A DNA stretch of 64,000 nt, from positions 926,399 to 990,398 of the forward strand of contig OZ251458.1 in assembly GCA_965242535.1 (NCBI GenBank), in the 5' to 3' direction. The stretch comes from Candidatus Latescibacterota bacterium. GTDB lineage: Bacteria > Latescibacterota > UBA2968. Below, piece by piece: positions 5,163-28,045 of this stretch. Numbering within the stretch: position 1 is the stretch's first letter; every line of letters starts with the position of its first letter. The notes beneath the pieces were generated by a model. That model did not search any database and had not been told where the DNA came from. It worked only from the letters and a program-made list of their open reading frames with translations. Position numbers and translations under genes: made by a program.

Positions 5163-6323
5163 GTGGCATTTCGAGATCACTTTGGTTATTACGGCCCGAC
5201 GCGCCTCGTCATGGGGCGCGGTACGGTCCGCGAGATCGGGCAAATCGCGCGTGAAGCGCGGGTGCAAAAGGCGCAGATCGTCACGGACGAGGGCCTCGTC
5301 GCGGCGGGCGTCGTGGCTCGCGTTACAGAGGTGCTCGACGACACGCGCATCGCGTACAGCATCTACGACGGCGTCGAACCCAATCCGCCCATTCGCAATG
5401 TGGAAGCATGCGCGGCGCAATACCGGGCGGAAAACTGCGATTTTCTGCTCGCTATCGGCGGCGGCTCTTCGATGGATGTCGCCAAAACCGCGGGCGTGCT
5501 CGTCAATCACGGCGGCAAAATCACCGATTATTTCATCGGGGAAAAACCCGTTCCCGGCCCCATTCCCTTTCTCTTATGCGTGCCCACCACGTATGGCACG
5601 GCGAGCGAAGTCACGCCCTTTGCCGTGATTACGGACGACAACCATTTCAAAGGCACTGTGCCAGGCCCACATGTCATGCCGAATGTGGGCATCCTCGACG
5701 CGGACATGGCCGTTGCCTTGCCCCTGCCCATCGCCGCGGCGACCGGCATGGACGCCCTCACGCACGCCATCGAATCCCATGTTTCCCTGTTGTCCAACCC
5801 CATTTCCGAGGGCATGGCCCTGCACGCCATTCGCCTCATCTCGCAAAACCTGCGCCAAGCCGCGTACAGCGACCACAACCACGAAGCCACGCAAAACATG
5901 CTCGCGGCGAGCACGATGGCCGGGTTTGCCTTTTCGCAAACGCGCTTGGGCAATGTCCATGCGATGTCGCATCCGGTCGGTGGGCACTACGGGGTGCCGC
6001 ATGGCGTTGCCAACGCGATTTTGCTCACGCGCATCATGGCGTACAACCGCTGTGCCTGCCCGGAAAAATTCGCGGATATCGCGGTCGCAATGGGCGAAGA
6101 TGTGGATGGCTTAAGCGCGGTCGACGCATCCGTGCTCGCGGTCGAAGCCGTGCAAAAGCTGTCTGACGACGTGGGCATTCCCGCCACGTTGACCGCCGCA
6201 GGCGCCAAAGCCACAGGCGTACAAGTGATGGCCGAGGACGCCATGAAAAGCGGCAATATCCAAGTCAATCCGCGCAAAACCGCGATCGAAGACGTGATCG
6301 CCCTGTACCAAGCATCCATGTAA
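5163..6323 (+). CDS. Iron-containing alcohol dehydrogenase (Fe-ADH family)
   Basis: GGGSSMDVAK NAD-binding motif and the metal-binding histidine region (HAIESHVS ... HAMSHPVGGHYGVPHG). GTG at 5163 is 7 nt after an AAGGAG ribosome-binding site. The ORF tracked from 5130 probably over-extends. Confidence 0.85.
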   Translation: MAFRDHFGYYGPTRLVMGRGTVREIGQIAREARVQKAQIVTDEGLVAAGVVARVTEVLDDTRIAYSIYDGVEPNPPIRNVEACAAQYRAENCDFLLAIGGGSSMDVAKTAGVLVNHGGKITDYFIGEKPVPGPIPFLLCVPTTYGTASEVTPFAVITDDNHFKGTVPGPHVMPNVGILDADMAVALPLPIAAATGMDALTHAIESHVSLLSNPISEGMALHAIRLISQNLRQAAYSDHNHEATQNMLAASTMAGFAFSQTRLGNVHAMSHPVGGHYGVPHGVANAILLTRIMAYNRCACPEKFADIAVAMGEDVDGLSAVDASVLAVEAVQKLSDDVGIPATLTAAGAKATGVQVMAEDAMKSGNIQVNPRKTAIEDVIALYQASM

Positions 6324-6335
6324 TGGAGGATCAAC

Positions 6336-7643
6336 ATGCCGACTTACCCCAATATGTTCCGCATTCGCCAGCACTTCGACGCGCCGCGCATCGACGACAT
6401 CGCGTCTGCCGTGCGCGGCGAAATCGCCAAACTCGATCCCGGTGCCACCATCGCCCCCGGCCAAACCGTGGCCATTGCCGCGGGCAGCCGGGGCGTGGCG
6501 AATATCGACGCCATCATCAAGACCATCGTGGAAGAAATGCAGGCCATTGGCGCGGCCCCGTACATCGTGCCCGCGATGGGCTCCCACGGCGGCGGCACAG
6601 CCGAAGGCCAAACCCAGGTCTTGGCCGGCTATGGCATCACCGAACGCGCGATGGGTTGCCCGATCAAATCGTCGATGGAGGTCGTGCAGATCGGGGTGTC
6701 GGATTTCGGCATGCCCATCTACTTCGACCGCCATGCCTCTGAAGCCGATCACATCGTCGTGGTCAACCGCATCAAGCCGCACACGGGATTCGCAGGCGAA
6801 ATCGAGAGCGGCCTGATGAAAATGATGCTCATCGGCTTGGGCAAGCACAAAGGCGCGGCCGTGTATCACCGCGCCATCATCCACCACTCGTTCGACAAAA
6901 TCGTGCGCTTGGTCGGTCGAGTCGTATGCCGGGAAATGCCCATTGCCTTTGGCGTGGCAACCCTCGAAAACGGCTATGACGAAACCGCGCTCGTCGAAGC
7001 CATCCCCGCATCGGACTTCGAAGCGCGGGAAAAAGTGCTTCAGGCCCAATCCAAGGTGTGGTGCCCCGCGTTGCCCTTTGACGATGTCGATCTGCTCATC
7101 ATCGACGAAATGGGCAAAGACATTTCCGGCGCGGGCATGGACACCAACGTCATCGGCCGCAAGCGCAACGACCGCCGCGCAATGGGCGATGAAACCCCCC
7201 GCGTGTTGCGAATTTTCGTGCGCGACCTCACCGAAGCCACGCACGGCAATGCCACGGGCTTGGGCATGGCCGAGTTCACCACGCGCCGCCTCGTGGATAA
7301 AATCGACTACCACGCCACCTATACCAACGTCATCACCGGGCAACACGTTTCGGCAGGCGCGATTCCCCTGCACTGCGACACCGATGCCGAAGTCCTCGAT
7401 ATCGCCCTGGAATCCCTCGGCCTCATCGCGCCGGAAGACGCCCGCGTGGTCTGGATTCCCAACACCCTCAACTTGGGCGAAGTCGAGGCGTCCGAAGCCT
7501 ATTGGGCGCACGCCGACATCCGGGACGACCTCGAAATCCTCACGGACTTGCGCCCCCTCGCAACCGAAGCCGACGGCAACTTGCCGTCCATCGAAGCCTA
7601 CCGCGACCGCGTGCCCGCAGGCGAACTCGCGTTTGCGGATTGA
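6336..7643 (+). CDS. LarA-like (lactate racemase N-terminal domain / DUF2088) family protein, putative
   Basis: Length of 435 aa and an H-x-GFAG...SG..K...H segment (IKPHTGFAGEIESGLMKMMLIGLGKHKGAAVYH) resemble the LarA catalytic core. Strong GGAGGA ribosome-binding site. No larB/C/E nearby. Assignment is by recall only. Confidence 0.45.
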   Translation: MPTYPNMFRIRQHFDAPRIDDIASAVRGEIAKLDPGATIAPGQTVAIAAGSRGVANIDAIIKTIVEEMQAIGAAPYIVPAMGSHGGGTAEGQTQVLAGYGITERAMGCPIKSSMEVVQIGVSDFGMPIYFDRHASEADHIVVVNRIKPHTGFAGEIESGLMKMMLIGLGKHKGAAVYHRAIIHHSFDKIVRLVGRVVCREMPIAFGVATLENGYDETALVEAIPASDFEAREKVLQAQSKVWCPALPFDDVDLLIIDEMGKDISGAGMDTNVIGRKRNDRRAMGDETPRVLRIFVRDLTEATHGNATGLGMAEFTTRRLVDKIDYHATYTNVITGQHVSAGAIPLHCDTDAEVLDIALESLGLIAPEDARVVWIPNTLNLGEVEASEAYWAHADIRDDLEILTDLRPLATEADGNLPSIEAYRDRVPAGELAFAD

Positions 7644-7813
7644 GAAATGCGTCGCCTGGTCGAAGGCTCTGCAACTGGGGTGAACCGTTAGGTGATGCCC
7701 GCCTTGGCTCTATGCGTTTTTTTGATCAGATATGAAAATGGCGGATTCGTCATTGAGCCGATTGCGTTTGGCAAAGACCTGAACGCAATTTTTGCTTTGT
7801 GTGCCTTTGTAAA

Positions 7814-8773
7814 ATGTCCGAACTATTGAATCTAAATCATTTTCAAAAAACCGCGATCGCGACGCTCATTGCGATTCTCGTCCTCATCGGCGTCGGCAGT
7901 CTCGTGCGCGTTTCGGGCGCGGGATTGGGGTGTCCCGATTGGCCCAAGTGCTGGGGCTGTTGGTTTCCGCCATCGAGCGTTGATGAAATTGACAAAAATT
8001 ATCTGGCAGAACGCGGGCTGGACATCGCGGACTTCAACGCGGTCAAGATGTGGATCGAGTACGGCAATCGCTTGGTCGGCGTGCTCATCGGGGTGCTGGT
8101 CATCGCCACGTTTTTGCGCGCGATCCCGCATCGACGAACCCATCCCGCGATTTTCTACGGGTCGCTCATGGCGGTCTTGCTCGTCGGCTTTGAAGGCTGG
8201 CTCGGCGGGCAGGTCGTCAAATCGGGCCTCAAGCCCGGGGTCATTACCCTGCACATGGCCGGCGCGATGGCGCTCTTGTGTCTGTTGCTCTACGTCACTT
8301 TTCACGCGGTTGACATCCGCCTGCCCGATTCGTTGCCCGCCCCCAAAGTGCTCGCTCGGCTCTCTGGCGTGCTCTTTGCCGCGATCTGCATTCAGATGCT
8401 GCTCGGCACGCAGGTGCGCGAAGCCATCGATCCCTACATCAAAAACAGCGGCGGGGTCGCTCGCAGCGCGTGGATAGCCAATGTCGGCCTTTTCGATCAC
8501 ATCCACCGCTCGTTCACCTGGGGGGTGGTTGCCATCGCCGCCTATCTCGCGTACATCGTCCGCAAGCTCGGCGGCGTGCTCAAAATGACGTGTTATCTCG
8601 CGCTGGCACTCATTCTTTGCCAAGCGGGCTCCGGCATTGTCTTGGCGTACGGGGGCTTGCCCCGGGTGTTTCAAGTGCTCCACCTCGTCAATTCGGCGAT
8701 GCTGATCTGCGCGACCTACGCGCTTTGGCTCATTCTGAAAACGGCACATCTCAACACAGGGAGGTCTTTGTGA
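7814..8773 (+). CDS. ctaA: Heme A synthase (COX15/CtaA family)
   Basis: Signature GAGLGCPDWPKCWG motif, multiple TM helices and the conserved His in HMAGAM. Confidence 0.85.
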   Translation: MSELLNLNHFQKTAIATLIAILVLIGVGSLVRVSGAGLGCPDWPKCWGCWFPPSSVDEIDKNYLAERGLDIADFNAVKMWIEYGNRLVGVLIGVLVIATFLRAIPHRRTHPAIFYGSLMAVLLVGFEGWLGGQVVKSGLKPGVITLHMAGAMALLCLLLYVTFHAVDIRLPDSLPAPKVLARLSGVLFAAICIQMLLGTQVREAIDPYIKNSGGVARSAWIANVGLFDHIHRSFTWGVVAIAAYLAYIVRKLGGVLKMTCYLALALILCQAGSGIVLAYGGLPRVFQVLHLVNSAMLICATYALWLILKTAHLNTGRSL

Positions 8774-9729
8774 AAATTTCCGTGTGGCACCGCGAACTGT
8801 CCGACTCCTATCTCCGCTTCGTCACGCAACTCGGCGCGGACTGCATCGACTTTGGGCGCGATGAGGATTTTCCCGGCGTCGCCGAACAGGGGTATCCGGA
8901 CCTGGACGCGCTCCTCAAAATCCAAAAGAAATTCCAATCCTGGGGCCTGGCGATCAACCGCGTCACCTTGCCCGATGTGTCGGAAAAATTTATGACCGAC
9001 CGACCCGGCGGGGAACGAGAACTCGAAAATACGTGTCGGGCCCTGCGCGTCTTTGCCGAAGCGGGCGTGCCCATTGCCCGCCAACGCTTTTGGGGCGACA
9101 CGTTCAACGCGCTCATGTTTCGCTATTCCTCCGAACACCGAGGCGGGTACCGCTCGCGCGGCGAGAGCCGGGATCTGACCCGTCCCGTGCCCGAAACGCC
9201 CGATTACGACGCCCTGCAAAACTGGTGGCAACACTTTTGCGCGGTCTATGAACGCCTCGTGCCCATCGCCGAGGAGACCGGCATCAAGCTCGCGATTCAC
9301 CCGTCCGACACGCCCAACCCGGACACGCCGCTTGGGGGACTGGGATTTCACCGGGTCATCGACGCGTTCCCGAGCCGGCAAGTGGGCTATCTCTACTGCT
9401 GTGGCACGCGCGCCGAAGCGGGCGGCTCCCCGCTCGTGCTCGACGAAATCAACAACTACGGCCGCAAGGGCCGCATCTTCATGGTGCATTTCCGCAACGT
9501 GCGCGGCTCGTTGGCCACGGCGCGCGGTTTTGAGGAAACCCTGCTCGACGATGGCGATATGAACATGTTTAAGCTCTTGCTCGAACTCGACCGCGTGGGA
9601 TTTGACGGCTGCCTCAATCCGGACCACATTCCCGCGCTCGAGGGCGATCATCCCCCGCTCACCGGGGGCTTGGCATACTCCGTGGGCTACATCAAAGCCC
9701 TGTTCGCGGCCATGGCGGCCCTGCCGTAA
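8770..9729 (+). CDS. Mannonate dehydratase (UxuA)-like / xylose-isomerase-like TIM-barrel protein
   Basis: AIHPSDTPNP, IFMVHFRNVRGS and LNPDH motifs parallel the UxuA AVHPDDPP / IYFTHLR / RPDHGH blocks. GTG start overlaps the ctaA stop as GTGA. Confidence 0.6.
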   Translation: MKISVWHRELSDSYLRFVTQLGADCIDFGRDEDFPGVAEQGYPDLDALLKIQKKFQSWGLAINRVTLPDVSEKFMTDRPGGERELENTCRALRVFAEAGVPIARQRFWGDTFNALMFRYSSEHRGGYRSRGESRDLTRPVPETPDYDALQNWWQHFCAVYERLVPIAEETGIKLAIHPSDTPNPDTPLGGLGFHRVIDAFPSRQVGYLYCCGTRAEAGGSPLVLDEINNYGRKGRIFMVHFRNVRGSLATARGFEETLLDDGDMNMFKLLLELDRVGFDGCLNPDHIPALEGDHPPLTGGLAYSVGYIKALFAAMAALP

Positions 9730-18305: not shown

Positions 18306-19643
18306 TTAGCCTTCCTCTGTACCTGCTAGCTGAACCATGAGGTCGCGCCGGTCGTGGATGATAGATGGAGAATGGGTAGCTACGAGGAAATCGAGGTCAG
18401 CCAACTTGGATATCTTAGCAATATCCTCGAGAAACTTTCTCTGCCATGTGACGTGAAGAGACAACTCTGGTTCATCTATGAGAATGAGGGAACCCGGCGA
18501 TGCCTTGAACAAAAGTCCGTATGTCAGGACAATTTCATGTTGCTCACCGGAGGACAGTGCTTTTGGAGGCACAATGGATCCATCGTGATCTGACTTAAAC
18601 ACGAAGCCCCTATCTTTATCTATCTCGAATTTCTTATATGAGAAACGCGAGTTGATAATCTCTTTGAACAGTTCTACTCGGCGGAGAAGTGGGTCGAATA
18701 CATCCAGTTTCTTTTGAACGTCATCGAGGTAGGCCCATAAAATTTTTCTTTCATTTTCTTCTAAACCTTCAGGGGTTAGAGGAACGGGAGCCTCAGCAAC
18801 AAGGAGACCTGCTTCCATCAAGCGATCTCTATATTTTGATTGACGGTTATATTCTTCCTGTATGCTCTCTTCTGTCGCTGTCTGAGGAAGCGCGTATGCC
18901 AAAAGCCGTTGGGGAAAAGAGCTATCTAAAGATGATCCAAGCTCACCGGATTCCCTTTGGCATTCCTTTATTCTCGATACCATATCCTCCGAGTATTGCT
19001 CTACCGTCACTCGTTGGACGGGAACTTCTCTCCTATATCGAGGCACAAATTCGCCATTTTTGTGCCTTGTAAAGAGTCTCTGAGTTTCAACAACGACAAT
19101 ATTGATTTGGTTTAATATGCTGTCCATTGCATCCGAAACTGAGGGGATGGATTCTCGAATATCAGAGGGTAGAAAGTGTCCGTAACGAAAAACGACCTCA
19201 TCAAAAGCCATGATCTCGTCCGTGATTTCATCATACCACTCAGATGGACCAATGCGTTCAATATGATCGATCATGCGTTCTAAGAGGCCGGCGGAATATC
19301 TTTTTAGCCTCTCCGGCACTCTCGAGGATACCGTATGCTCAATCGTTTTGTTTCCGAAACGATAGGTTAATTTTAGCTTTGCGGAATCCTTTGCCCCTTC
19401 TTTTTGGATTTGTCTAACTGTCAAGCTGCCTTTCGGATCGAAACGGACCACAATGCGGTCAAAGGGCGTATCGAACAATGAGTGAAACCGCCGTTTGAAG
19501 AGGTCATAGACGAGACGGAGAACCGTCGTCTTGCCGACGCCATTCCGGCCGTGGATGATAGTAATACGGTCGTTTTCCTTCAAGGGTATCTCGTGATCAA
19601 AATACCCGAACAGAGAGTGAATATCGATCTGTCTTATTTTCAT
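18306..19643 (-). CDS. ABC/SMC-type ATPase component (AriA-like; AAA_15/AAA_21-like)
   Basis: Walker A GRNGVGKTT, ABC signature LSSGEQ, Walker B LILIDEPE and H-loop ATHSP. ATG at 19643 with a GGAG ribosome-binding site. The 164-codon upstream extension in the ORF track is read-through antisense to the TPR gene. Confidence 0.75.
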   Translation of the reverse strand: MKIRQIDIHSLFGYFDHEIPLKENDRITIIHGRNGVGKTTVLRLVYDLFKRRFHSLFDTPFDRIVVRFDPKGSLTVRQIQKEGAKDSAKLKLTYRFGNKTIEHTVSSRVPERLKRYSAGLLERMIDHIERIGPSEWYDEITDEIMAFDEVVFRYGHFLPSDIRESIPSVSDAMDSILNQINIVVVETQRLFTRHKNGEFVPRYRREVPVQRVTVEQYSEDMVSRIKECQRESGELGSSLDSSFPQRLLAYALPQTATEESIQEEYNRQSKYRDRLMEAGLLVAEAPVPLTPEGLEENERKILWAYLDDVQKKLDVFDPLLRRVELFKEIINSRFSYKKFEIDKDRGFVFKSDHDGSIVPPKALSSGEQHEIVLTYGLLFKASPGSLILIDEPELSLHVTWQRKFLEDIAKISKLADLDFLVATHSPSIIHDRRDLMVQLAGTEEG

Positions 19644-19671
19644 GTCCGTCTCCAATTGTCTATTTGCACTT

Positions 19672-19712
19672 TTAGAAAACCCCGCACTCATTGGCACGGG
19701 GTTTTGGGATGT
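19672..19712. terminator. Hairpin and T-run identical to 17388-17428 (right copy of the direct repeat)
   Basis: Same 41-bp sequence. Lies 26 nt downstream of the TPR gene stop. Confidence 0.7.
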
Positions 19713-19737
19713 TGGGGTTTGTGGAGCGAGGTGATCG

Positions 19738-20925
19738 CTATTCCTGATTTTGGCTTTGCAGAGCCTCGTACATCTGGTAGGCTTCGGTGGCTTTTTTGAC
19801 GCATTCTGCGGCGACATCGCCTTCCGAGACTTCGGATTTGCGCGCATAAACGCGAGACAGCGCGGCCCAAGCGCGGGCATTGGCGGGTTCGAGTTCGGTG
19901 ACTTGGGCAAAGGCTTCGATGGCTTTGTCAAAGGATTCCACTTTGTCCGCGAGCAAGCCGAGCTGGTACCACGAATCGACATCGTCGGGATTTGCTTCCA
20001 CGCTCTTTTGGAAGAGGTCGAGGGCTTGATCGCCCTTGCCGAGTTGCCGATAGGCAATGGCGAGGTTGAACATCGCGTCCATGTTATCGGGTTGGAGCTC
20101 GACCACTTTATCGAGGATTTCAGCGGCTTTTTCAAAGTTTTCGGCTTGCAAAAAGATCTGCGCCGCGATGTTCAAAATTTTGGGATCATCGCCCGCTATC
20201 GCCAAGGCTTTTTCCGCGGATTCCGACGCGCCTTCTCTGTCGCCTAATTGGTATTGGGCTATCGCCATGTTCTGCAAAATAAGGATATCTTCGGGATCGA
20301 TCTCGTGGCCTTTTTGGAACATTTCCAGGGCTTCGTCAACCCGGCCCGCATTCATCAGCGCGCCGCCGACATTGAAAAAGGACTGGGCTTTCTTCGGATT
20401 GAGTTCAAGGGCTTTTTTGTACGTCTCGATGCCCTCGTCTGCATTGCCCGAGTTGAGGTGCGTGATCGCCAAGCCTTCATACGCGTCGGCTTCTTTGGGG
20501 TTGATCGTGATGGCGAGGTTGAATTGCTCGATGGCAAACTCGGATTTTTGGGAGTTCATCCCCTTGACGCCCAGGTTGTAATACCGCGTCCAAAGCTCTT
20601 TGCGGTCCGTCTCGACTTTCTTTTTCCATTTCTTGTCCGTGGCCAGCTCGTAGTGTTCGTTCATTTCCTCGAACAATTCCTTTTTCGAGTAGAGCCAGCC
20701 CAAGTAGTACTGGACTTCCGAATCGTCGGGGCGACCTTCTGCCGCGATGATGTATTGTTCCAACGCCTTGTCGTATTGACGCTGATTGATGTACAATTTG
20801 CCCGACCGCTTGGCAACAGAGGCCTGCCCTTTGGTCACTTTGGCTTCCGCAGTCGCGGTGAGCGATGGGGGCGCAACAAAAGCTAGCGTCAGGGCAACGA
20901 TGAGTCCACACTTGCGAAATGTCAT
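19738..20925 (-). CDS. Secreted TPR-repeat protein
   Basis: Signal peptide MTFRKCGLIVALTLAFVAPPSLTATAEA, then repeated TPR-like A/Y/L/G heptad patterns throughout. Confidence 0.75.
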   Translation of the reverse strand: MTFRKCGLIVALTLAFVAPPSLTATAEAKVTKGQASVAKRSGKLYINQRQYDKALEQYIIAAEGRPDDSEVQYYLGWLYSKKELFEEMNEHYELATDKKWKKKVETDRKELWTRYYNLGVKGMNSQKSEFAIEQFNLAITINPKEADAYEGLAITHLNSGNADEGIETYKKALELNPKKAQSFFNVGGALMNAGRVDEALEMFQKGHEIDPEDILILQNMAIAQYQLGDREGASESAEKALAIAGDDPKILNIAAQIFLQAENFEKAAEILDKVVELQPDNMDAMFNLAIAYRQLGKGDQALDLFQKSVEANPDDVDSWYQLGLLADKVESFDKAIEAFAQVTELEPANARAWAALSRVYARKSEVSEGDVAAECVKKATEAYQMYEALQSQNQE

Positions 20926-24343: not shown

Positions 24344-24450
24344 GATCAGCCCGTCCAGTCGGGATTCCACGCGGTGGGGTTTTTGTCTTACGGGATCACT
24401 TCCGTGTGGAAATGGAGCGGGATCGAACTCGTCGAATGATCGGAGGCTTT

Positions 24451-25617
24451 ATGTATCGAATTGGACAACCCGAAATCGCGCGCGTGGCGACCCTGTTGGA
24501 AAGCGGCGAGATTTTTCGCTATGGCAAGGCGGGGGAATGCGACCGGTTTGAAGCGGATTGGGGCAGGCGATTGGGCGGGGTTCAGGTGCGGATGACCACC
24601 AGTGGCACGGCCTCGCTTTATTGCGCCCTCATCGGCCTCAAGGTCGGGCCGGGGGATTCGGTCATCGTGCCTGCGTGTACGTACATGGCGACCGCGCTCG
24701 CGGTCGTCGCTGCAGGGGCCATGCCCATCGTCGCGGAGGTGGATGAATCGATCACCTTGTCTCCCGAAGATGTCGCAAAAAAAATTGCCCCGCACACCAA
24801 GGCCATCATCCCCGTCCACATGTGGGGGTTGCCCTGCGACATGGACGCGCTGATGGGCCTTGCAGAAGAGCGCGGGGTCAAGGTCTTAGAAGATGCGTGT
24901 CAGGCCGTTGGCGGCGGGTACAAAGGTCGCGCACTCGGGTCTATCGGACACGCGGGAGCGTTCAGTTTTAACTATTTCAAAAATATGACCAGCGGCGAGG
25001 GCGGCGCGTTTGTTTCGGCGGATGCGTCTGTGTTCCGACGCGGGTCGGTCGCCGCGGATTGCTGCTCGTATTATTGGAATCCGGAAGAGCATCGCCCCGA
25101 TGAACAATTCGCCGGGCTGAATTTTCGGGCCACGGAAATTTCGGGCGCGATTCTCAATGCCCAACTCGAGCGCATCGACGAAATGCTGGATCGGATGCGC
25201 GGGCACAAGCGCGTGCTGACAAAGGTGGGCGAAGACGCGGGCCTGACGTCGATCACCAACAACAGTTTGGACGACGAATGCGGCACGCACGTCGGATTTA
25301 TTTTTGAGTCGGAAGAACGCGCTCGCGCCTTTGCCGGACAGATGAAGACAGCGACCGGCCGCGCGTTTTTGCCCATCGACACCGGGCGACACGTCTATAC
25401 GCGCTGGGATCCCATCATGCGAAAACAAGGCGCGCACCATCCCGCGCTCGACCCGTTTCGCCTGCCGGAAAACGAGGCGTTGCAGATCGCGTATTCCGAG
25501 GATATGTGCGCCCAATCGCTGGATATTTTGAGCCGGGCCGTGCTCATCGGCATGCACCCGGACAACGACCGGGAAAAGGTCGATGAAATCGCAACCGCCA
25601 TTCGGGAATCCACCTAG
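24451..25617 (+). CDS. DegT/DnrJ/EryC1/StrS family PLP-dependent sugar aminotransferase
   Basis: Fold-type I aminotransferase pattern with a conserved FSFNYFKNMTSGEGG region (PLP Lys). CGGAGG ribosome-binding site. Confidence 0.8.
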   Translation: MYRIGQPEIARVATLLESGEIFRYGKAGECDRFEADWGRRLGGVQVRMTTSGTASLYCALIGLKVGPGDSVIVPACTYMATALAVVAAGAMPIVAEVDESITLSPEDVAKKIAPHTKAIIPVHMWGLPCDMDALMGLAEERGVKVLEDACQAVGGGYKGRALGSIGHAGAFSFNYFKNMTSGEGGAFVSADASVFRRGSVAADCCSYYWNPEEHRPDEQFAGLNFRATEISGAILNAQLERIDEMLDRMRGHKRVLTKVGEDAGLTSITNNSLDDECGTHVGFIFESEERARAFAGQMKTATGRAFLPIDTGRHVYTRWDPIMRKQGAHHPALDPFRLPENEALQIAYSEDMCAQSLDILSRAVLIGMHPDNDREKVDEIATAIREST

Positions 25618-25719
25618 ATCGCGTTGTTCGGCAATGGCTTCAAGCCTTGTCAACCTTTCGTTGGTGGTGGCTTGGGACGGATCGATGATGGGAATGGGTA
25701 TGCGTTTTTAGGGATTTCA

Positions 25720-26892
25720 TCAATAATGGACGACCTGAAAATACAAGTCGTCTTTGACCGGGTTAAATTCAACAAATTTCAATCGGTCACACCGTCCACC
25801 ATTGTTCTGGTTAAATCTGTTAAAGCTGTCAATCAATTGCTGATAAGCCACAGATTGCTTATTGGCAATTTTTTTTGTTACCAGCACTGGCTGAATATCA
25901 CTTGGGCGATTCGAAATATAATATTGCTCAATCCAATCCACATATCTTTGAATTTGTATGACGTTATTTATGTCCGCTTCAACTGCTTTCAGTTCAAGGG
26001 CAATTACTATTCTTTGCTCATTTCGTATAGCTGACGCCATAATATCAATCCTCTGCATGCCAACACCGCATGATACCTCATTGCCAAGCCATTCAATTTG
26101 CGCGCCATTAAGGATTGCCGCATCCAAACTCGCGTTTATTGTTTGGCCTATATTCTTTGTTATATACGCCTGCAAATGTGATTCAAACATTTGTCCGACT
26201 TGATACTTTGCAATCAGCCGCGGCAATAGATTTAGTTCCTCTTGCCGTATTCCAGCGTAGGGGCTCTTTTGGTCAAGACAAACTATTTTTCCTTTTTCCA
26301 AATCGAATGAAACCCCCGTATTTTGGCAGTTCAATTCTGTTTTTTTGTTTTTGTTCCTAATAAGTTGCGTCAATCTTTCAGCCTCATAAATCGTTATCAT
26401 TGTGTTACCGCGATTGCCCTTAAGTTTTCGGTATATCAAGCTCCATAGCATTTGATTTGGAGAGTTTATGTTTTTAATCTCGTCCAAAGCTTCCCATTCT
26501 GTTACGCCTTCCGCATAAACTCTATATGGCTCAATGAGCGTTCTAAAAGTTAGCGGCTTTTGAAGTTCGCTTTTGAGATATTGCCGATCATCATTGTTAT
26601 CCAAGAACGACCAGTTGTGTTTGGCTTTGAAAATTCCAAAAAACTTACCTTCAAAAATTTTATTTGCAAAGTTCTGTTGCAAATAAAAAATGATTTGGTC
26701 TCCCCGTCTAACCCTACTCCCATCGGCGATCATGTTGACAAGCATATTTTCTGTTGCTGGGTGAAGATAAGTGCTTGTGCTTGGACTGTTAAAGTCAACT
26801 TTGTTGTCTTTTGCCCCAGTGCCGGCAAAGAGATATTCCAAGTGGATTTTGAATGTCGTGGAATCGACAATGAAAACATGTGTTGTCATCAT
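25720..26892 (-). CDS. Restriction endonuclease-like protein: N-terminal PUA/EVE-like beta-barrel plus C-terminal PD-(D/E)xK nuclease
   Basis: N-terminus carries the R-R-GD-x-I-x-FY pattern (RVRRGDQIIFY) of EVE/ASCH/PUA folds. C-terminus carries RIDIMAS...IVIALELKA (D...E-x-K). Strongly AT-rich codon usage. AGGAGG ribosome-binding site. Confidence 0.6.
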   Translation of the reverse strand: MMTTHVFIVDSTTFKIHLEYLFAGTGAKDNKVDFNSPSTSTYLHPATENMLVNMIADGSRVRRGDQIIFYLQQNFANKIFEGKFFGIFKAKHNWSFLDNNDDRQYLKSELQKPLTFRTLIEPYRVYAEGVTEWEALDEIKNINSPNQMLWSLIYRKLKGNRGNTMITIYEAERLTQLIRNKNKKTELNCQNTGVSFDLEKGKIVCLDQKSPYAGIRQEELNLLPRLIAKYQVGQMFESHLQAYITKNIGQTINASLDAAILNGAQIEWLGNEVSCGVGMQRIDIMASAIRNEQRIVIALELKAVEADINNVIQIQRYVDWIEQYYISNRPSDIQPVLVTKKIANKQSVAYQQLIDSFNRFNQNNGGRCDRLKFVEFNPVKDDLYFQVVHY

Positions 26893-26925
26893 GGTACCTC
26901 CTATCGTCGGAAAACAGCGGATACC

Positions 26926-27933
26926 TCACGTTGGGGGTTTGCAGACCGAGCAGGGAAAATGGTCTTTCTCGGCATCTTTCAATGAGATGGGAATATAGGT
27001 CTTTTTTAGATATCGACAACCAGCGCGATGATACTTGGTTCCCGCTGTTGTGGTATAGACCTCAATTTCGTCACGGGAACGGACTTTTACCGTATTGCCT
27101 ACTTTTTTAAAAACGAAAATGTACTCGTGCTTGAAAATGTAGAACCCGCCTACGAGTGCGCGATAGCGCCACAGATTTTCCCGATTCTGCTTTGCGCGGT
27201 TGTTCACCATATTTTTTACGAGAATGCTTTTCAGCATGAGGCCATGCCCGCGCTTTAGGATTTCTTGCATGAGATAAAACCCGAGCGGCACCCACTCGCT
27301 ATTGGTGTACTTATCGCCAATCACAACCGCCAAGTATCTGTCCCGCGCCAATAAATCGGTAAAATTTTCAATCACATCGCCGAACTTCGCGACAAATTCG
27401 TCAACGGTTGGGGCATTGCACAGATCCGCTTTTTGGTCGCTGAACTTGATAATATCGTGATACGGGGGATGCAACAAGATCAAATGGACATATTGTTTGC
27501 CCATTTTGTCCAGCACTTCCAAAACTTTGGTGCGTGCAGCTCTTGTCGCGCTGTCTGCGACGATGACTTCTGTCAGAACATTGTCGCCACTGACTTCAGT
27601 GCCTGCATGATCAAAAGACAGTTCCTCTTGGCTGATATTTTGTCGTGCGTATTCCGCCACCTCGGGTATCAACTCAACGCCGATACCGTGCCGGCCCAAC
27701 CGCTTCGATTCGATGAGGGTCGTGCCGTGCCCCAAAAACGCATCCAAAACAACATCGCCTTTTTGCGTGAACCGATTCATCATCTGATTCGGGATTTGCG
27801 GAATGAAGTTGCCGTGGTACGCGTTGTTGTGTGCCCCGGATTTGTCGCGCTCGCCAATCAACCACAGGCTATCGGTGATAATATCGCCGTATTTCTTCCA
27901 ATTTTTTAATTCTAAATCGTTGATTTTCGGCAT
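26926..27933 (-). CDS. DNA methyltransferase (amino-MTase: N6-adenine or N4-cytosine)
   Basis: Motif I VLDAFLGHGTT with a preceding FIPQIPNQ block and LGRHGIGVE. Motif IV LLHPPY. Cys-rich C-terminal tail. Same AT-rich island as the nuclease. Confidence 0.75.
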   Translation of the reverse strand: MPKINDLELKNWKKYGDIITDSLWLIGERDKSGAHNNAYHGNFIPQIPNQMMNRFTQKGDVVLDAFLGHGTTLIESKRLGRHGIGVELIPEVAEYARQNISQEELSFDHAGTEVSGDNVLTEVIVADSATRAARTKVLEVLDKMGKQYVHLILLHPPYHDIIKFSDQKADLCNAPTVDEFVAKFGDVIENFTDLLARDRYLAVVIGDKYTNSEWVPLGFYLMQEILKRGHGLMLKSILVKNMVNNRAKQNRENLWRYRALVGGFYIFKHEYIFVFKKVGNTVKVRSRDEIEVYTTTAGTKYHRAGCRYLKKTYIPISLKDAEKDHFPCSVCKPPT

Positions 27934-27960
27934 GGTTAATCCCCGTCATTTGTATCTTCG

Positions 27961-28045
27961 GACGGGCACGGGGGCCTGTCCCTACGATTGCGATTGCTTC
28001 TCACCTCTCACCTCTCCCGTCTCCCGTCTCCCGTCTCCCGTCTTG
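27961..28045. repeat. REP-like hairpin (reverse orientation) plus (GGGAGAC)n tail and CTTGTATCTT
   Basis: Reverse complement of the canonical hairpin-GAAGATACAAG-(GGGAGAC)n composite. Confidence 0.85.

Follow-up and report, generated by a model that had tools for sequence, protein, structure and literature searches.

The 64,000-nucleotide stretch of Latescibacterota DNA analysed here (the window) contains a two-gene island which we take, with rather more confidence than doubt, to be a classical, methylation-sensitive Type II restriction-modification operon with a new enzyme architecture and a recognition site that probably contains CATG. One gene encodes a DNA amino-methyltransferase (M1) with SAM-binding and catalytic motifs; the other, separate and adjacent, encodes a presumed restriction endonuclease with its catalytic motif intact. 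The nuclease consists of an EVE domain of the PUA superfamily, a basic middle region and a NucS-like PD-(D/E)xK domain, an architecture previously undescribed for a restriction endonuclease, as which we presume the protein to act. Elsewhere, the EVE fold is known from modification-dependent enzymes only (PMC6765204, PMC7897488, PMC12707154). A methylase in every assessable locus, the usual coupling to the upstream gene and substitution for the restriction enzyme IceA are together what one expects of a methylation-sensitive Type II enzyme.

A low-GC island of two genes

Both genes, as delimited by ORF calling, are read from the minus strand. The island, its edges and the elements discussed below are as follows.

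24406-25617, DegT-family aminotransferase gene (PF01041), one neighbour of the island
25720-26892, minus strand, EVE::PD-(D/E)xK nuclease, 390 aa, presumed restriction endonuclease
25723-26106, minus strand, C-terminal NucS-like PD-(D/E)xK domain, residues 263-390
25987-26046, minus strand, catalytic segment D283...E300-L-K302, with Q313 and Y317 just downstream
26107-26457, minus strand, middle alpha/beta region, about residues 146-262 (secondary structure from the AF2 model)
26458-26892, minus strand, N-terminal EVE (PUA-superfamily) domain, about residues 1-145
26897-26902, minus strand, Shine-Dalgarno sequence AGGAGG, 4 nt upstream of the nuclease ATG (direct sequence reading)
26926-27933, minus strand, M1, DNA amino-methyltransferase, 335 aa (PF01555 and PADLOC)
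26929-27093, minus strand, C-terminal tail of M1, 55 aa, Cys/His-rich (YHRAGCRYL...PCSVCKP)
27460-27471, minus strand, motif IV of M1, HPPY, residues 155-158 (direct sequence reading)
27721-27747, minus strand, motif I (SAM-binding) of M1, DAFLGHGTT, residues 63-71
27965-27986, plus strand, REP-like dispersed hairpin at the upstream edge of the island, stem GGAC(A/G)GGC / GCCTGTCC (copies aligned)
27999-28043, plus strand, heptamer tandem repeats TCTCACC / TCTCCCG adjoining the REP-like element (Tandem Repeats Finder)

The preliminary description had seen here an AT-rich, horizontally acquired restriction island with a REP element at its edge, and the calculations bear this out. The GC content of positions 25720-27933 is 0.434 against 0.581 in the remaining window, the minimum among all 2214-bp sliding windows (z = -4.7 against non-overlapping windows), and GC3 is 0.41 in the nuclease gene, 0.58 in the methyltransferase gene and 0.71 in the flanking genes. 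In almost all hosts examined, the methyltransferase-nuclease pair has a GC content below that of its flanks, as expected for a mobile restriction-modification module, and copies with 57-89% identity are spread over more than 15 phyla of bacteria and archaea. To call the island recently acquired would probably be too strong, since it is shared, together with one flanking gene, with the related Latescibacterota genome OZ242320.1 at similar divergence.

The core of the REP-like element, GGACAGGCACGGGGGCCTGTCCCTAC, is present in nine copies in the window, with none expected by chance. The heptamer repeats next to it fall within the 3' end of a CsiD-like ORF, and other copies of the element are flanked by the same heptamers. 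A search beside the island for a tRNA, an integrase, a transposase or convincing terminal repeats found none of these, and a promoter scan gave nothing above shuffled sequence.

The methyltransferase

M1 matches the Pfam family N6_N4_Mtase (PF01555, 4.3e-21) in two stretches and the PADLOC model MTase_II (PDLC03351) at 4e-103, in agreement with the amino-methyltransferase previously recognised from its motifs I and IV. Homologues of M1 are 66-98% identical to it. In their alignment, motif I is conserved as D-x-F-L-G-x-G-T-T. HPPY is invariant in this alignment and present in 146 of 147 M1 homologues, across all cassette types; its first residue is unusual for a catalytic motif of the (D/N/S)PP(Y/F) type. 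Since motif I precedes motif IV, the protein is circularly permuted relative to the beta-class enzymes with their order IV-TRD-I, and the PDB alignment with TTHA0409 shows the two halves swapped (residues 42-107 on chain positions 219-284, residues 138-208 on 30-100). M1 is thus a circular permutant of the PF01555 family. The 55-residue tail is found only in the window, in P0121-P0123 and in L011, that is, in this lineage only; it has no match in Pfam and a weak one to the C-terminus of phrog_14556 (1.4e-4).

The nuclease

The spacer between the methyltransferase stop codon (TGA, 26926-26928) and the nuclease ATG is 33 nt long and contains the AGGAGG. The nuclease has 2571 homologues, the best 120 of which are 70-100% identical to it; in protein databases they are named only "DUF91 domain-containing" or "predicted RNA-binding protein". 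Restriction-enzyme models in Pfam, NCBIfam, PADLOC and PHROGs do not match it: PADLOC has no REase_II model for it and gave only weak PDC-S02 matches, and PHROGs gave zero matches. A phage collection likewise returned zero matches, and a plasmid collection a single one, from Halobaculum at 24% identity. The protein matches neither ICEA (PF05315) nor HNH nor NucS_N, and at 390 aa it is longer than NucS (about 250 aa).

A structure prediction, which the preliminary description had suggested as a check, yielded an AF2 model with a pLDDT of 94.7 and a pTM of 0.93. The EVE-like character proposed earlier for the N-terminus is confirmed by a five-stranded pseudobarrel of the EVE fold and by a match to the EVE profile (PF01878); it is through the RVRRGDQIIFY segment that the protein aligns with PH1033 and MJECL36, two EVE proteins of archaea. 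The fold is closest to the modified-base readers THYN1, VcaM4I and YTH. Residues T13, H17, F22/G24/T25, F84-F88 and E132/W133 are conserved, and their positions match numerically those of the VcaM4I base pocket (Q10, T11, E15, W22, P24, W82, Q128, Y130; PMC7897488). On this positional comparison, the EVE pocket is likely to be functional. The middle region bears a near-invariant basic segment, WSLIYRKLKGNRG, and in the homologue alignment a set of conserved residues (W150, I153, Y154, R155, K156, L157, R161, G162, E170), and it is a candidate DNA-contact or linker domain.

The D...ExK motif noticed earlier in the C-terminal part stands on firm ground, with D283, E300, K302, Q313 and Y317 invariant in the 61 homologues aligned, and its ELK...Q...Y pattern aligns to the catalytic segment of NucS. 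The closest similarity of this domain is to NucS/EndoMS, a mismatch endonuclease, and this raises the thought of a repair enzyme, analogous to Vsr in dcm-vsr, which would nick a lesion or mismatch at M1-methylated sites and take no part in restriction; M1 would then be, in the two-gene loci, effectively an orphan methylase. We consider this unlikely, largely for reasons that come from the gene neighbourhood and are given below. In addition, we know of no need for a site-specific patch repair at m6A or m4C, whose deamination products go to general repair.

Linkage of the nuclease to a methylase

As a rule, modification-dependent enzymes are built from a PUA-superfamily reader joined to a nuclease (PMC6765204, PMC7897488, PMC12707154), and with the EVE fold confirmed this architecture is indeed present. 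The preliminary description had leaned towards such a function, Type IV- or IIM-like, in which case the methylase beside the nuclease would have to recognise sites that do not overlap with those of the nuclease, or serve some unrelated purpose. The loci of the family speak for a different arrangement. Among 80 species-level genome loci, an M1 homologue lies directly upstream of the nuclease on the same strand in 76 and convergently downstream in 2; the remaining two are L041, which has a different methylase, and one locus without upstream DNA. When all loci are taken together, about 110 from more than 15 phyla, every intact nuclease gene with DNA available on either side has a methyltransferase next to it. 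The distance from the end of the upstream gene to the nuclease start is at most 15 nt in 88 of 107 loci, and to judge by this spacing the two genes are usually translationally coupled. The absence of a cognate methyltransferase, which goes with the Type IV or IIM assignment, is thus not what we find: the linkage is close to 100%, whereas in published PUA-domain modification-dependent enzymes a methyltransferase lies within 3 kb in under 6% (PMC6765204). An enzyme that needed the mark of its own neighbour would moreover be suicidal.

Two single loci are informative in this respect. In L041 the nuclease is accompanied only by a D12-class N6-adenine methyltransferase (PF02086, 1.6e-47), which starts 3 nt after the nuclease stop codon; the partner can be swapped for a non-homologous m6A methylase, a further point against the modification-dependent reading. 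In L038 a small HTH gene, seen in no other locus, precedes the nuclease gene by 3 nt, where a controller (C) gene usually sits, and this speaks against a repair enzyme. Linkage as such cannot separate repair from restriction, for dcm and vsr are also strictly linked, with overlapping genes. The broad lateral spread as a low-GC module, however, suits a selfish restriction-modification unit better than a repair function.

Exchange with IceA and the recognition site

A further argument comes from loci fetched with an IceA-family enzyme (PF05315, 2e-111). Their typical order is M1-IceA-D12, and the middle slot of this M1-X-D12 cassette may be taken by an IceA/NlaIII-type endonuclease, by the EVE nuclease or by both. 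The EVE nuclease is also present in 18 of 80 IceA loci, a retention of two nucleases which a single-site Type II reading leaves unaccounted for. Cassettes of the form M1-EVE-D12 without IceA were found in 20 genome loci, and M1-EVE without any other nuclease in 67. In L173 a 33%-identical relative of the nuclease lies beside two PF01555 methylases and an IceA gene. The M1 and D12 proteins of the M1-EVE-D12 cassettes have a median identity of 82% and 78%, respectively, to those flanking IceA alone; with flanking methylases about 80% identical whichever nuclease is present, the target is probably the same or nested. The nuclease thus stands in for a classical CATG enzyme within conserved M-R-M cassettes, which makes the modification-dependent function highly improbable; it also takes, between the same two methylases, the slot of a bona fide restriction enzyme, which is hard to reconcile with a dcm-vsr-like role.

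How far the site can be carried over to the window is a matter of divergence. The window's M1 falls in a clade that shares only about 50-55% identity with the M1 proteins of the IceA cassettes, and the window's nuclease shares 64-68% with the nucleases of M1-EVE-D12 cassettes, so the specificity could have drifted. No locus examined combines IceA with M1 as sole methylase; in those that lack D12 but extend far enough downstream, its slot holds a C5-cytosine methylase. M1 and D12 may for this reason not be equivalent. An "IceA with M1 alone" arm of a 2x2 argument was discarded, the loci concerned either carrying the C5 methylase or ending before the slot. Plasmid matches to M1 and IceA (Fusobacterium, Priestia) were unannotated and too distant to be of use.

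According to papers that cite the original work (PMC3261200, ref 10; PMC2749054; PMC2441816), IceA1 and NlaIII cut CATG; the text of the first of these misprints the site as CTAG while citing a title with CATG. Palindrome avoidance was considered as an independent readout. The observed/expected ratio of CATG is 0.66 in the pooled loci, 0.63-0.64 in the flanks of the EVE loci and 0.92 in the window, against 0.46-0.50 in the IceA loci, which served as the positive and sole control set. In the host flanks GATC, GGCC and CTAG are as low as CATG or lower. As a readout of the site, CATG depletion is consistent with the proposed target but not decisive, being non-specific in the flanks and absent in the window.

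The cassettes with both nucleases also bring to mind a hybrid of Type II and Type IV, where methylation by M1 shields the host while the EVE domain senses, in addition, a second, foreign base modification. Such a cassette would restrict unmodified DNA as well as phage DNA hypermodified against NlaIII-type (CATG) cleavage. The 18 cassettes with IceA and the EVE nuclease are easier to understand if the two enzymes are non-redundant, the nearest relatives of the EVE fold are known readers of modified bases, and there is a precedent in the proposal of Bell et al., who suggested a similar logic for EVE proteins with Type I systems (PMC7641849). Against this, the enzyme must act alone in the 67 M1-EVE and 20 M1-EVE-D12 loci without another nuclease, and the sequence points to no second ligand. 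The canonical EVE tryptophans, moreover, seem to be replaced, on a weak comparison with PH1033. On these grounds we hold the hybrid to be improbable.

How the system might work

In the Type II reading that we prefer, M1, with its HPPY motif and permuted PF01555 fold, would mark the host DNA, and the nuclease, encoded in the same operon and with a Shine-Dalgarno sequence of its own, would cut DNA without that mark. The recognition site would most likely be CATG or a longer site containing it, and the protective mark N6-methyladenine. The nuclease is probably dimeric, like NucS and VcaM4I. Its EVE domain may flip the target base into the conserved pocket and license the nuclease only if the base is unmethylated, either by steric exclusion of the methyl group or by a relief of autoinhibition resembling that of Type IIE enzymes. 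In VcaM4I, removal of the EVE domain sets free a nuclease that is non-specific. A PUA-family reader would, in the present case, have come to check that methylation is absent, and we infer this to be likelier than the hybrid with a second ligand.

Comparison with known systems

It is worth setting this nuclease beside its closest counterparts. With NlaIII and IceA1 (HpyI) it shares the slot between an upstream HPPY-type PF01555 methylase and a downstream D12-class methylase. The likeness ends with this position in the cassette: IceA and NlaIII are HNH (beta-beta-alpha-Me) enzymes of about 225 aa (PF05315; PMC2441816), and neither the sequence nor the fold of the 390-aa EVE and PD-(D/E)xK protein is related to them. 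The characterised systems of H. pylori and N. lactamica are reported with a single methylase (hpyIM; PMC2749054), unlike the two-methylase cassettes described here. The VcaM4I/TspA15I group of EVE-HNH enzymes has the reader domain but an HNH nuclease and no partner methylase, and cuts 5mC/5hmC DNA (PMC6765204, PMC7897488). The present enzyme has instead a PD-(D/E)xK domain and is obligately paired with a methylase, and this implies that its logic is the reverse of theirs.

NucS/EndoMS has in common with the nuclease the C-terminal D...ExK...QxxxY pattern and the general plan of a base-accepting N-terminal domain followed by a restriction-enzyme-like C-terminal domain. For EndoMS, base flipping was reportedly described by Nakae et al. 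in 2016. In the present protein an EVE domain replaces the N-domain of NucS and a middle region of about 115 residues is added; NucS, for its part, is a chromosomal repair enzyme which has no methylase linkage and lacks the lateral mobility of the EVE nuclease. Finally, a D12/alpha-class and a PF01555-type methylase serve one endonuclease in DpnII, MboI and LlaDCHI as well, all with the 4-bp palindrome GATC. These M-R-M systems have another target and unrelated nucleases, and the island in the window corresponds to a reduced form with M1 and the nuclease.

Significance

The family could be of use in the laboratory, as a source of cutters of the CATG family with another cut geometry or another methylation sensitivity. 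The cassettes offer, in addition, a natural experiment, in which an HNH enzyme and an EVE::PD-(D/E)xK enzyme have been exchanged, or kept side by side, between the same two methylases.

The wider meaning concerns the working rule that EVE and other PUA-superfamily domains are a hallmark of modification-dependent restriction enzymes, a rule for which the lack of a methylase beside such enzymes has served as supporting evidence (PMC6765204; reviewed in PMC12707154). This rule is challenged by a nuclease family with about 2,600 detectable members in CPR bacteria, many other bacterial phyla and some archaea, in which the EVE reader fold is paired with an obligate, presumed protective, methylase. 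If the nuclease is methylation-sensitive, then a reader domain can serve to confirm that a base carries no modification, and the assignment of a restriction enzyme to Type IV needs more than its domain architecture.

The Island and Its Surroundings

The two genes of interest share the minus strand of a short island, bounded on either side by genes of the aminotransferase and dioxygenase families.

24406-25617: DegT-family aminotransferase gene, flanking the island on one side
25720-26892, minus strand: EVE nuclease (EVE::PD-(D/E)xK protein), 390 aa
26926-27933, minus strand: PF01555 methyltransferase (M1), 335 aa
27982-28965, minus strand: CsiD/TauD-family dioxygenase gene, flanking the other side

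A preliminary description had proposed a low-GC island with a methyltransferase and a 390-aa protein downstream. Both reading frames were found, and the computed composition agrees: the GC content of 25720-27933 is 0.434 vs. 0.581 in the remaining window, the lowest among all 2.2-kb stretches of the window (z = -4.7). GC3 is 0.41 in the nuclease gene, 0.58 in M1 and 0.71 in the adjoining genes. The spacer between M1 and the nuclease is 33 nt long, with AGGAGG placed 4 nt ahead of the nuclease ATG. No integrase, tRNA or terminal repeats were found at the island edges.

A locus on another Latescibacterota chromosome (L011, OZ242320.1) has the identical gene order, with a CsiD-like flank gene 81% identical to that of the window at the amino acid level, and a tailed M1 and a nuclease that are 78% and 82% identical in nucleotides; the opposite flanks are not alike. 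The window organism is thus probably a relative of this one, with an island older than the split of the two lineages that has nonetheless kept its low GC.

The REP element mentioned in the same description is a genuine dispersed hairpin, GGACAGGC-ACGGGG-GCCTGTCC, in which GGACAGGC and GCCTGTCC pair as an 8-bp stem around a 6-nt loop. This genome-specific element has nine copies in the window against none expected (22-nt cores at 12972, 27965, 31635, 49490, 52418, 52583, 62225, 62284 and 62439), and the copy at 27965-27986 lies directly upstream of the M1 start. Five copies have a common left flank, TTGTATCTTC, edged by the heptamer repeats TCTCCCG / TCTCACC. Tandem heptamers at 27999-28043 fall within the 3' end of the CsiD-like frame; because they make it about 20 residues longer (…KTGDGRRETGEVRGEKQSQS) than its L011 orthologue, the true stop and C-terminus of this gene are doubtful. 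About 6 kb from the island, a second low-GC patch (0.44-0.50; 17444-20135, minus strand) holds a PARIS-like defence pair: an AAA_15/AAA_21 ATPase (PADLOC AriA 1.9e-24, PtuA 1.5e-24) and, after it, a DUF4435/Toprim protein (PADLOC AriB 6e-21).

The Methyltransferase and the Nuclease

The assignment of M1 as a DNA methyltransferase stands: Pfam N6_N4_Mtase (4.3e-21) and a PADLOC model for Type II methyltransferases (4e-103) both match it. Along the chain, motif I (FLGHGTT, residues 63-71) comes ahead of motif IV (HPPY, 155-158), and the two halves of the protein align in swapped order with the beta-class enzyme TTHA0409, which makes M1 a circular permutant of the TTHA0409 family. HPPY is invariant among close homologues and present in 146 of 147 M1 homologues covering all cassette types; the motif does not discriminate N6-adenine from N4-cytosine methylation. 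After the core comes a Cys/His-rich tail of 55 aa (YHRxxC…PCSxCxP; 26929-27093, minus strand, and L011 5665-5830), which is confined to the window lineage and missing from all other M1 homologues. The tail has no Pfam match and weakly matches the C-terminus of the phage family phrog_14556; its position is the one that a target-recognition domain would take in a gamma-class enzyme.

The architecture suggested for the nuclease, an EVE-like reader at the N-terminus joined to a D...ExK nuclease, was upheld by profile searches, an AlphaFold2 model and Foldseek. The window protein matches Pfam NucS_C (4e-5, at the gathering score) and NCBIfam NucS (1.6e-5), and its residues 59-148 match the archaeal EVE-type family PRK00809 (6.9e-5). 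In an alignment of 61 family members, with identities down to 27%, D283, E300, K302, Q313 and Y317 are invariant; they make up the PD-(D/E)xK + QxxxY signature, which aligns with the catalytic segment of the mismatch endonuclease NucS/EndoMS. Pfam EVE is matched individually by 14 of the 61 (best 1.5e-7), and a PDB search with the family profile retrieves MJECL36 (5.7e-5) and PH1033 (1.3e-4), both EVE proteins, in an alignment that spans the RVRRGDQIIFY segment singled out in the preliminary description. The model built from the family alignment (pLDDT 94.7, pTM 0.93) predicts a confidently folded EVE domain, and its Foldseek search concurs with the sequence-based domains. Between the two domains, a region of about 115 residues carries a near-invariant basic segment, WSLIYRKLKGNRG. 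The protein has an intact PD-(D/E)xK site, a strongly conserved EVE domain and a conserved basic middle region.

Distribution and Linkage to a Methylase

There are 2571 detectable homologues of the nuclease, and the best 120 of them (70-100% identical) are named just "DUF91 domain-containing" or "predicted RNA-binding protein". The family is compact: representatives at 50% identity, searched exhaustively, yielded only 321 clusters. One-genome-per-species data hold 157 relatives; the best 80 (57-81% identity) all come from uncultured genomes, the hosts including Patescibacteria lineages, Latescibacterota, Zixibacteria, Ignavibacteria, Bacteroidota, Dehalococcoidia, Planctomycetota, Verrucomicrobiota, Omnitrophota and Gammaproteobacteria, as well as the archaea Altarchaeum and Woesearchaeota.

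An M1 homologue lies directly upstream and co-oriented in 76 of these 80 loci, and downstream and convergent in two. The GC content of the pair is below that of its flanks in nearly all hosts. When every locus retrieved is considered, 88 of 107 nuclease genes begin no more than 15 nt from where the upstream gene ends. A methylase could be detected in all nuclease loci but two: L070, which lacks upstream DNA, and L092, where a viral contig holds a truncated copy of the nuclease. In the latter (IMG/VR, 5737-8870), only residues 43-336 of the nuclease are present, directly 3' of a gene that encodes a Type IIG-like fusion of HSDR_N_2, N6_Mtase and Eco57I domains; another viral contig (L091) has an intact pair with an M1 of 378 aa. 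In Paceibacterota (CPR; L001-L006, e.g., L001 3976-9488), the pair is immediately 3' of dnaA-dnaN, beside the region of the replication origin, with a small winged-helix gene after it. Reading frames of 163 aa (Zixibacteria L007/L008/L010/L017, 3945-4436) and 180 aa (L079, 5446-5988) separate M1 from the nuclease in some loci, and have no match in Pfam, NCBIfam or PADLOC.

Exchange with IceA

The methylase itself can be replaced. In L041, the sole genome locus that lacks an M1 homologue with upstream DNA present, a D12-class N6-adenine methyltransferase (PF02086 1.6e-47, DPPY) begins 3 nt past the nuclease stop. In L053, a full-length IceA/NlaIII-type protein (PF05315, 2e-111) lies between M1 and the nuclease. 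H. pylori IceA1 is an NlaIII-like endonuclease for CATG whose gene adjoins hpyIM, the gene of the CATG methylase; NlaIII belongs to the HNH enzymes (PMC3261200 ref 10, PMC2749054, PMC2441816). The text of PMC3261200 calls NlaIII "CTAG-specific" while the title of its ref 10 has CATG-recognizing, a misprint that could mislead text mining.

The L053 IceA protein was used as a query to gather 80 metagenomic loci. Their typical layout is M1-IceA-D12; in 18 the EVE nuclease is present as well, usually as M1-IceA-EVE-D12 and once as M1-EVE-IceA-D12.

Cassette types after re-scoring of all loci
M1-EVE: 67 loci
M1-EVE-D12: 20 loci
M1-IceA-D12: 32 loci
M1-IceA-EVE-D12: 17 loci
EVE-D12: 1 locus

The methylases of M1-EVE-D12 cassettes closely resemble those flanking IceA alone, at 65-90% identity for M1 (median 82%) and 72-89% for D12 (median 78%). 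By these counts and identities, one methylase-flanked slot can hold either the EVE nuclease or the IceA-type enzyme, or both stacked together. An IceA gene and a pair of PF01555 methylases are again found alongside a more distant family member, which has just 33% identity to the window nuclease. IceA with M1 as its only methylase was never seen among the loci fetched; where D12 is missing from an IceA cassette with downstream DNA present, a C5 methylase, from one human-gut lineage, takes the slot. In this variant (L160, L161, L163, L165 and L166; e.g., L160 3174-6922), M1 (HPPY) and IceA are followed by an HTH and a C5-cytosine methyltransferase (PF00145 8e-70), so an m5C methylase occupies the place of the D12 adenine methylase, and an Abi_C-domain gene comes next.

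A five-gene cassette in a Peregrinibacteria MAG (L038, 4294-8255) reads M1, HNH-type enzyme, HTH, EVE nuclease, D12. The HNH-type enzyme (PADLOC REase_II 1.7e-32) is a distant IceA relative (BLASTP 2e-8), and the HTH gene, 70 aa, Cro/C1-type and controller-like, is 3 nt upstream of the nuclease. The position directly upstream of the nuclease gene is where controller proteins are usually encoded. The methylase linkage, taken alone, would also be compatible with a Vsr-like repair nuclease; with the EVE nuclease filling the IceA slot and a controller-like gene beside it in L038, we find this explanation improbable.

Function, Recognition Site and Mechanism

A modification-dependent enzyme does not need a methylase. 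Among PUA-domain nucleases, a methylase is reported within 3 kb in <6% of cases, and this absence was taken as evidence for modification dependence (PMC6765204). The present family has the opposite pattern: obligate methylase linkage, coupled expression, a replaceable methylase and replacement of a classical enzyme. Together these point to a methylation-sensitive Type II endonuclease as the best reading, one we hold to be reasonably probable. The modification-dependent (Type IV/IIM) enzyme of the preliminary description does not fit the linkage or the IceA replacement, and we consider it very unlikely. A hybrid Type II/IV enzyme, additionally sensing foreign modification, would account for the 18 cassettes with both nucleases; its chance is small, on a par with that of a repair nuclease.

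Methylases about 80% identical are almost always of one specificity, and the sites of a restriction enzyme necessarily lie within the set protected by its partner methylase. It follows from the likeness to the IceA methylases that the most likely family site is CATG itself or a longer sequence that includes it, for which we see close to an even chance; the window M1 clade is ~50-55% identical to the cassette M1, and the window nuclease 64-68% identical to the cassette nucleases, which tempers this proposal. Avoidance of CATG by host DNA agrees with such a site but is non-specific.

That a base-flipping N-domain can work together with a nuclease domain of this kind has a precedent in NucS/EndoMS. 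In VcaM4I, an EVE-HNH modification-dependent endonuclease, the EVE pocket consists of Q10, T11, E15, W22, P24, W82, Q128 and Y130, and the EVE domain and linker auto-inhibit the nuclease (PMC7897488). The near-invariant T13, H17, F22/G24/T25, F84-F88 and E132/W133 of our family match these positions by residue number, a numbering that suggests a working base pocket. We envisage that a dimer would bind the site and that the EVE pocket would receive the flipped target base, in all likelihood adenine; cutting would be licensed only when this base is unmethylated.

The EVE nuclease has no match to the PADLOC Type II REase models, to any restriction-enzyme family in NCBIfam or Pfam, or in PHROGs and the plasmid and phage collections; the EVE surveys consulted make no mention of NucS/DUF91 fusions or of a methylase-linked EVE nuclease. 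Judged against PADLOC, NCBIfam, Pfam, PHROGs and these surveys, we rate the system as Type II, with an endonuclease whose architecture is new and in which a reader domain would have been put to an unexpected use.
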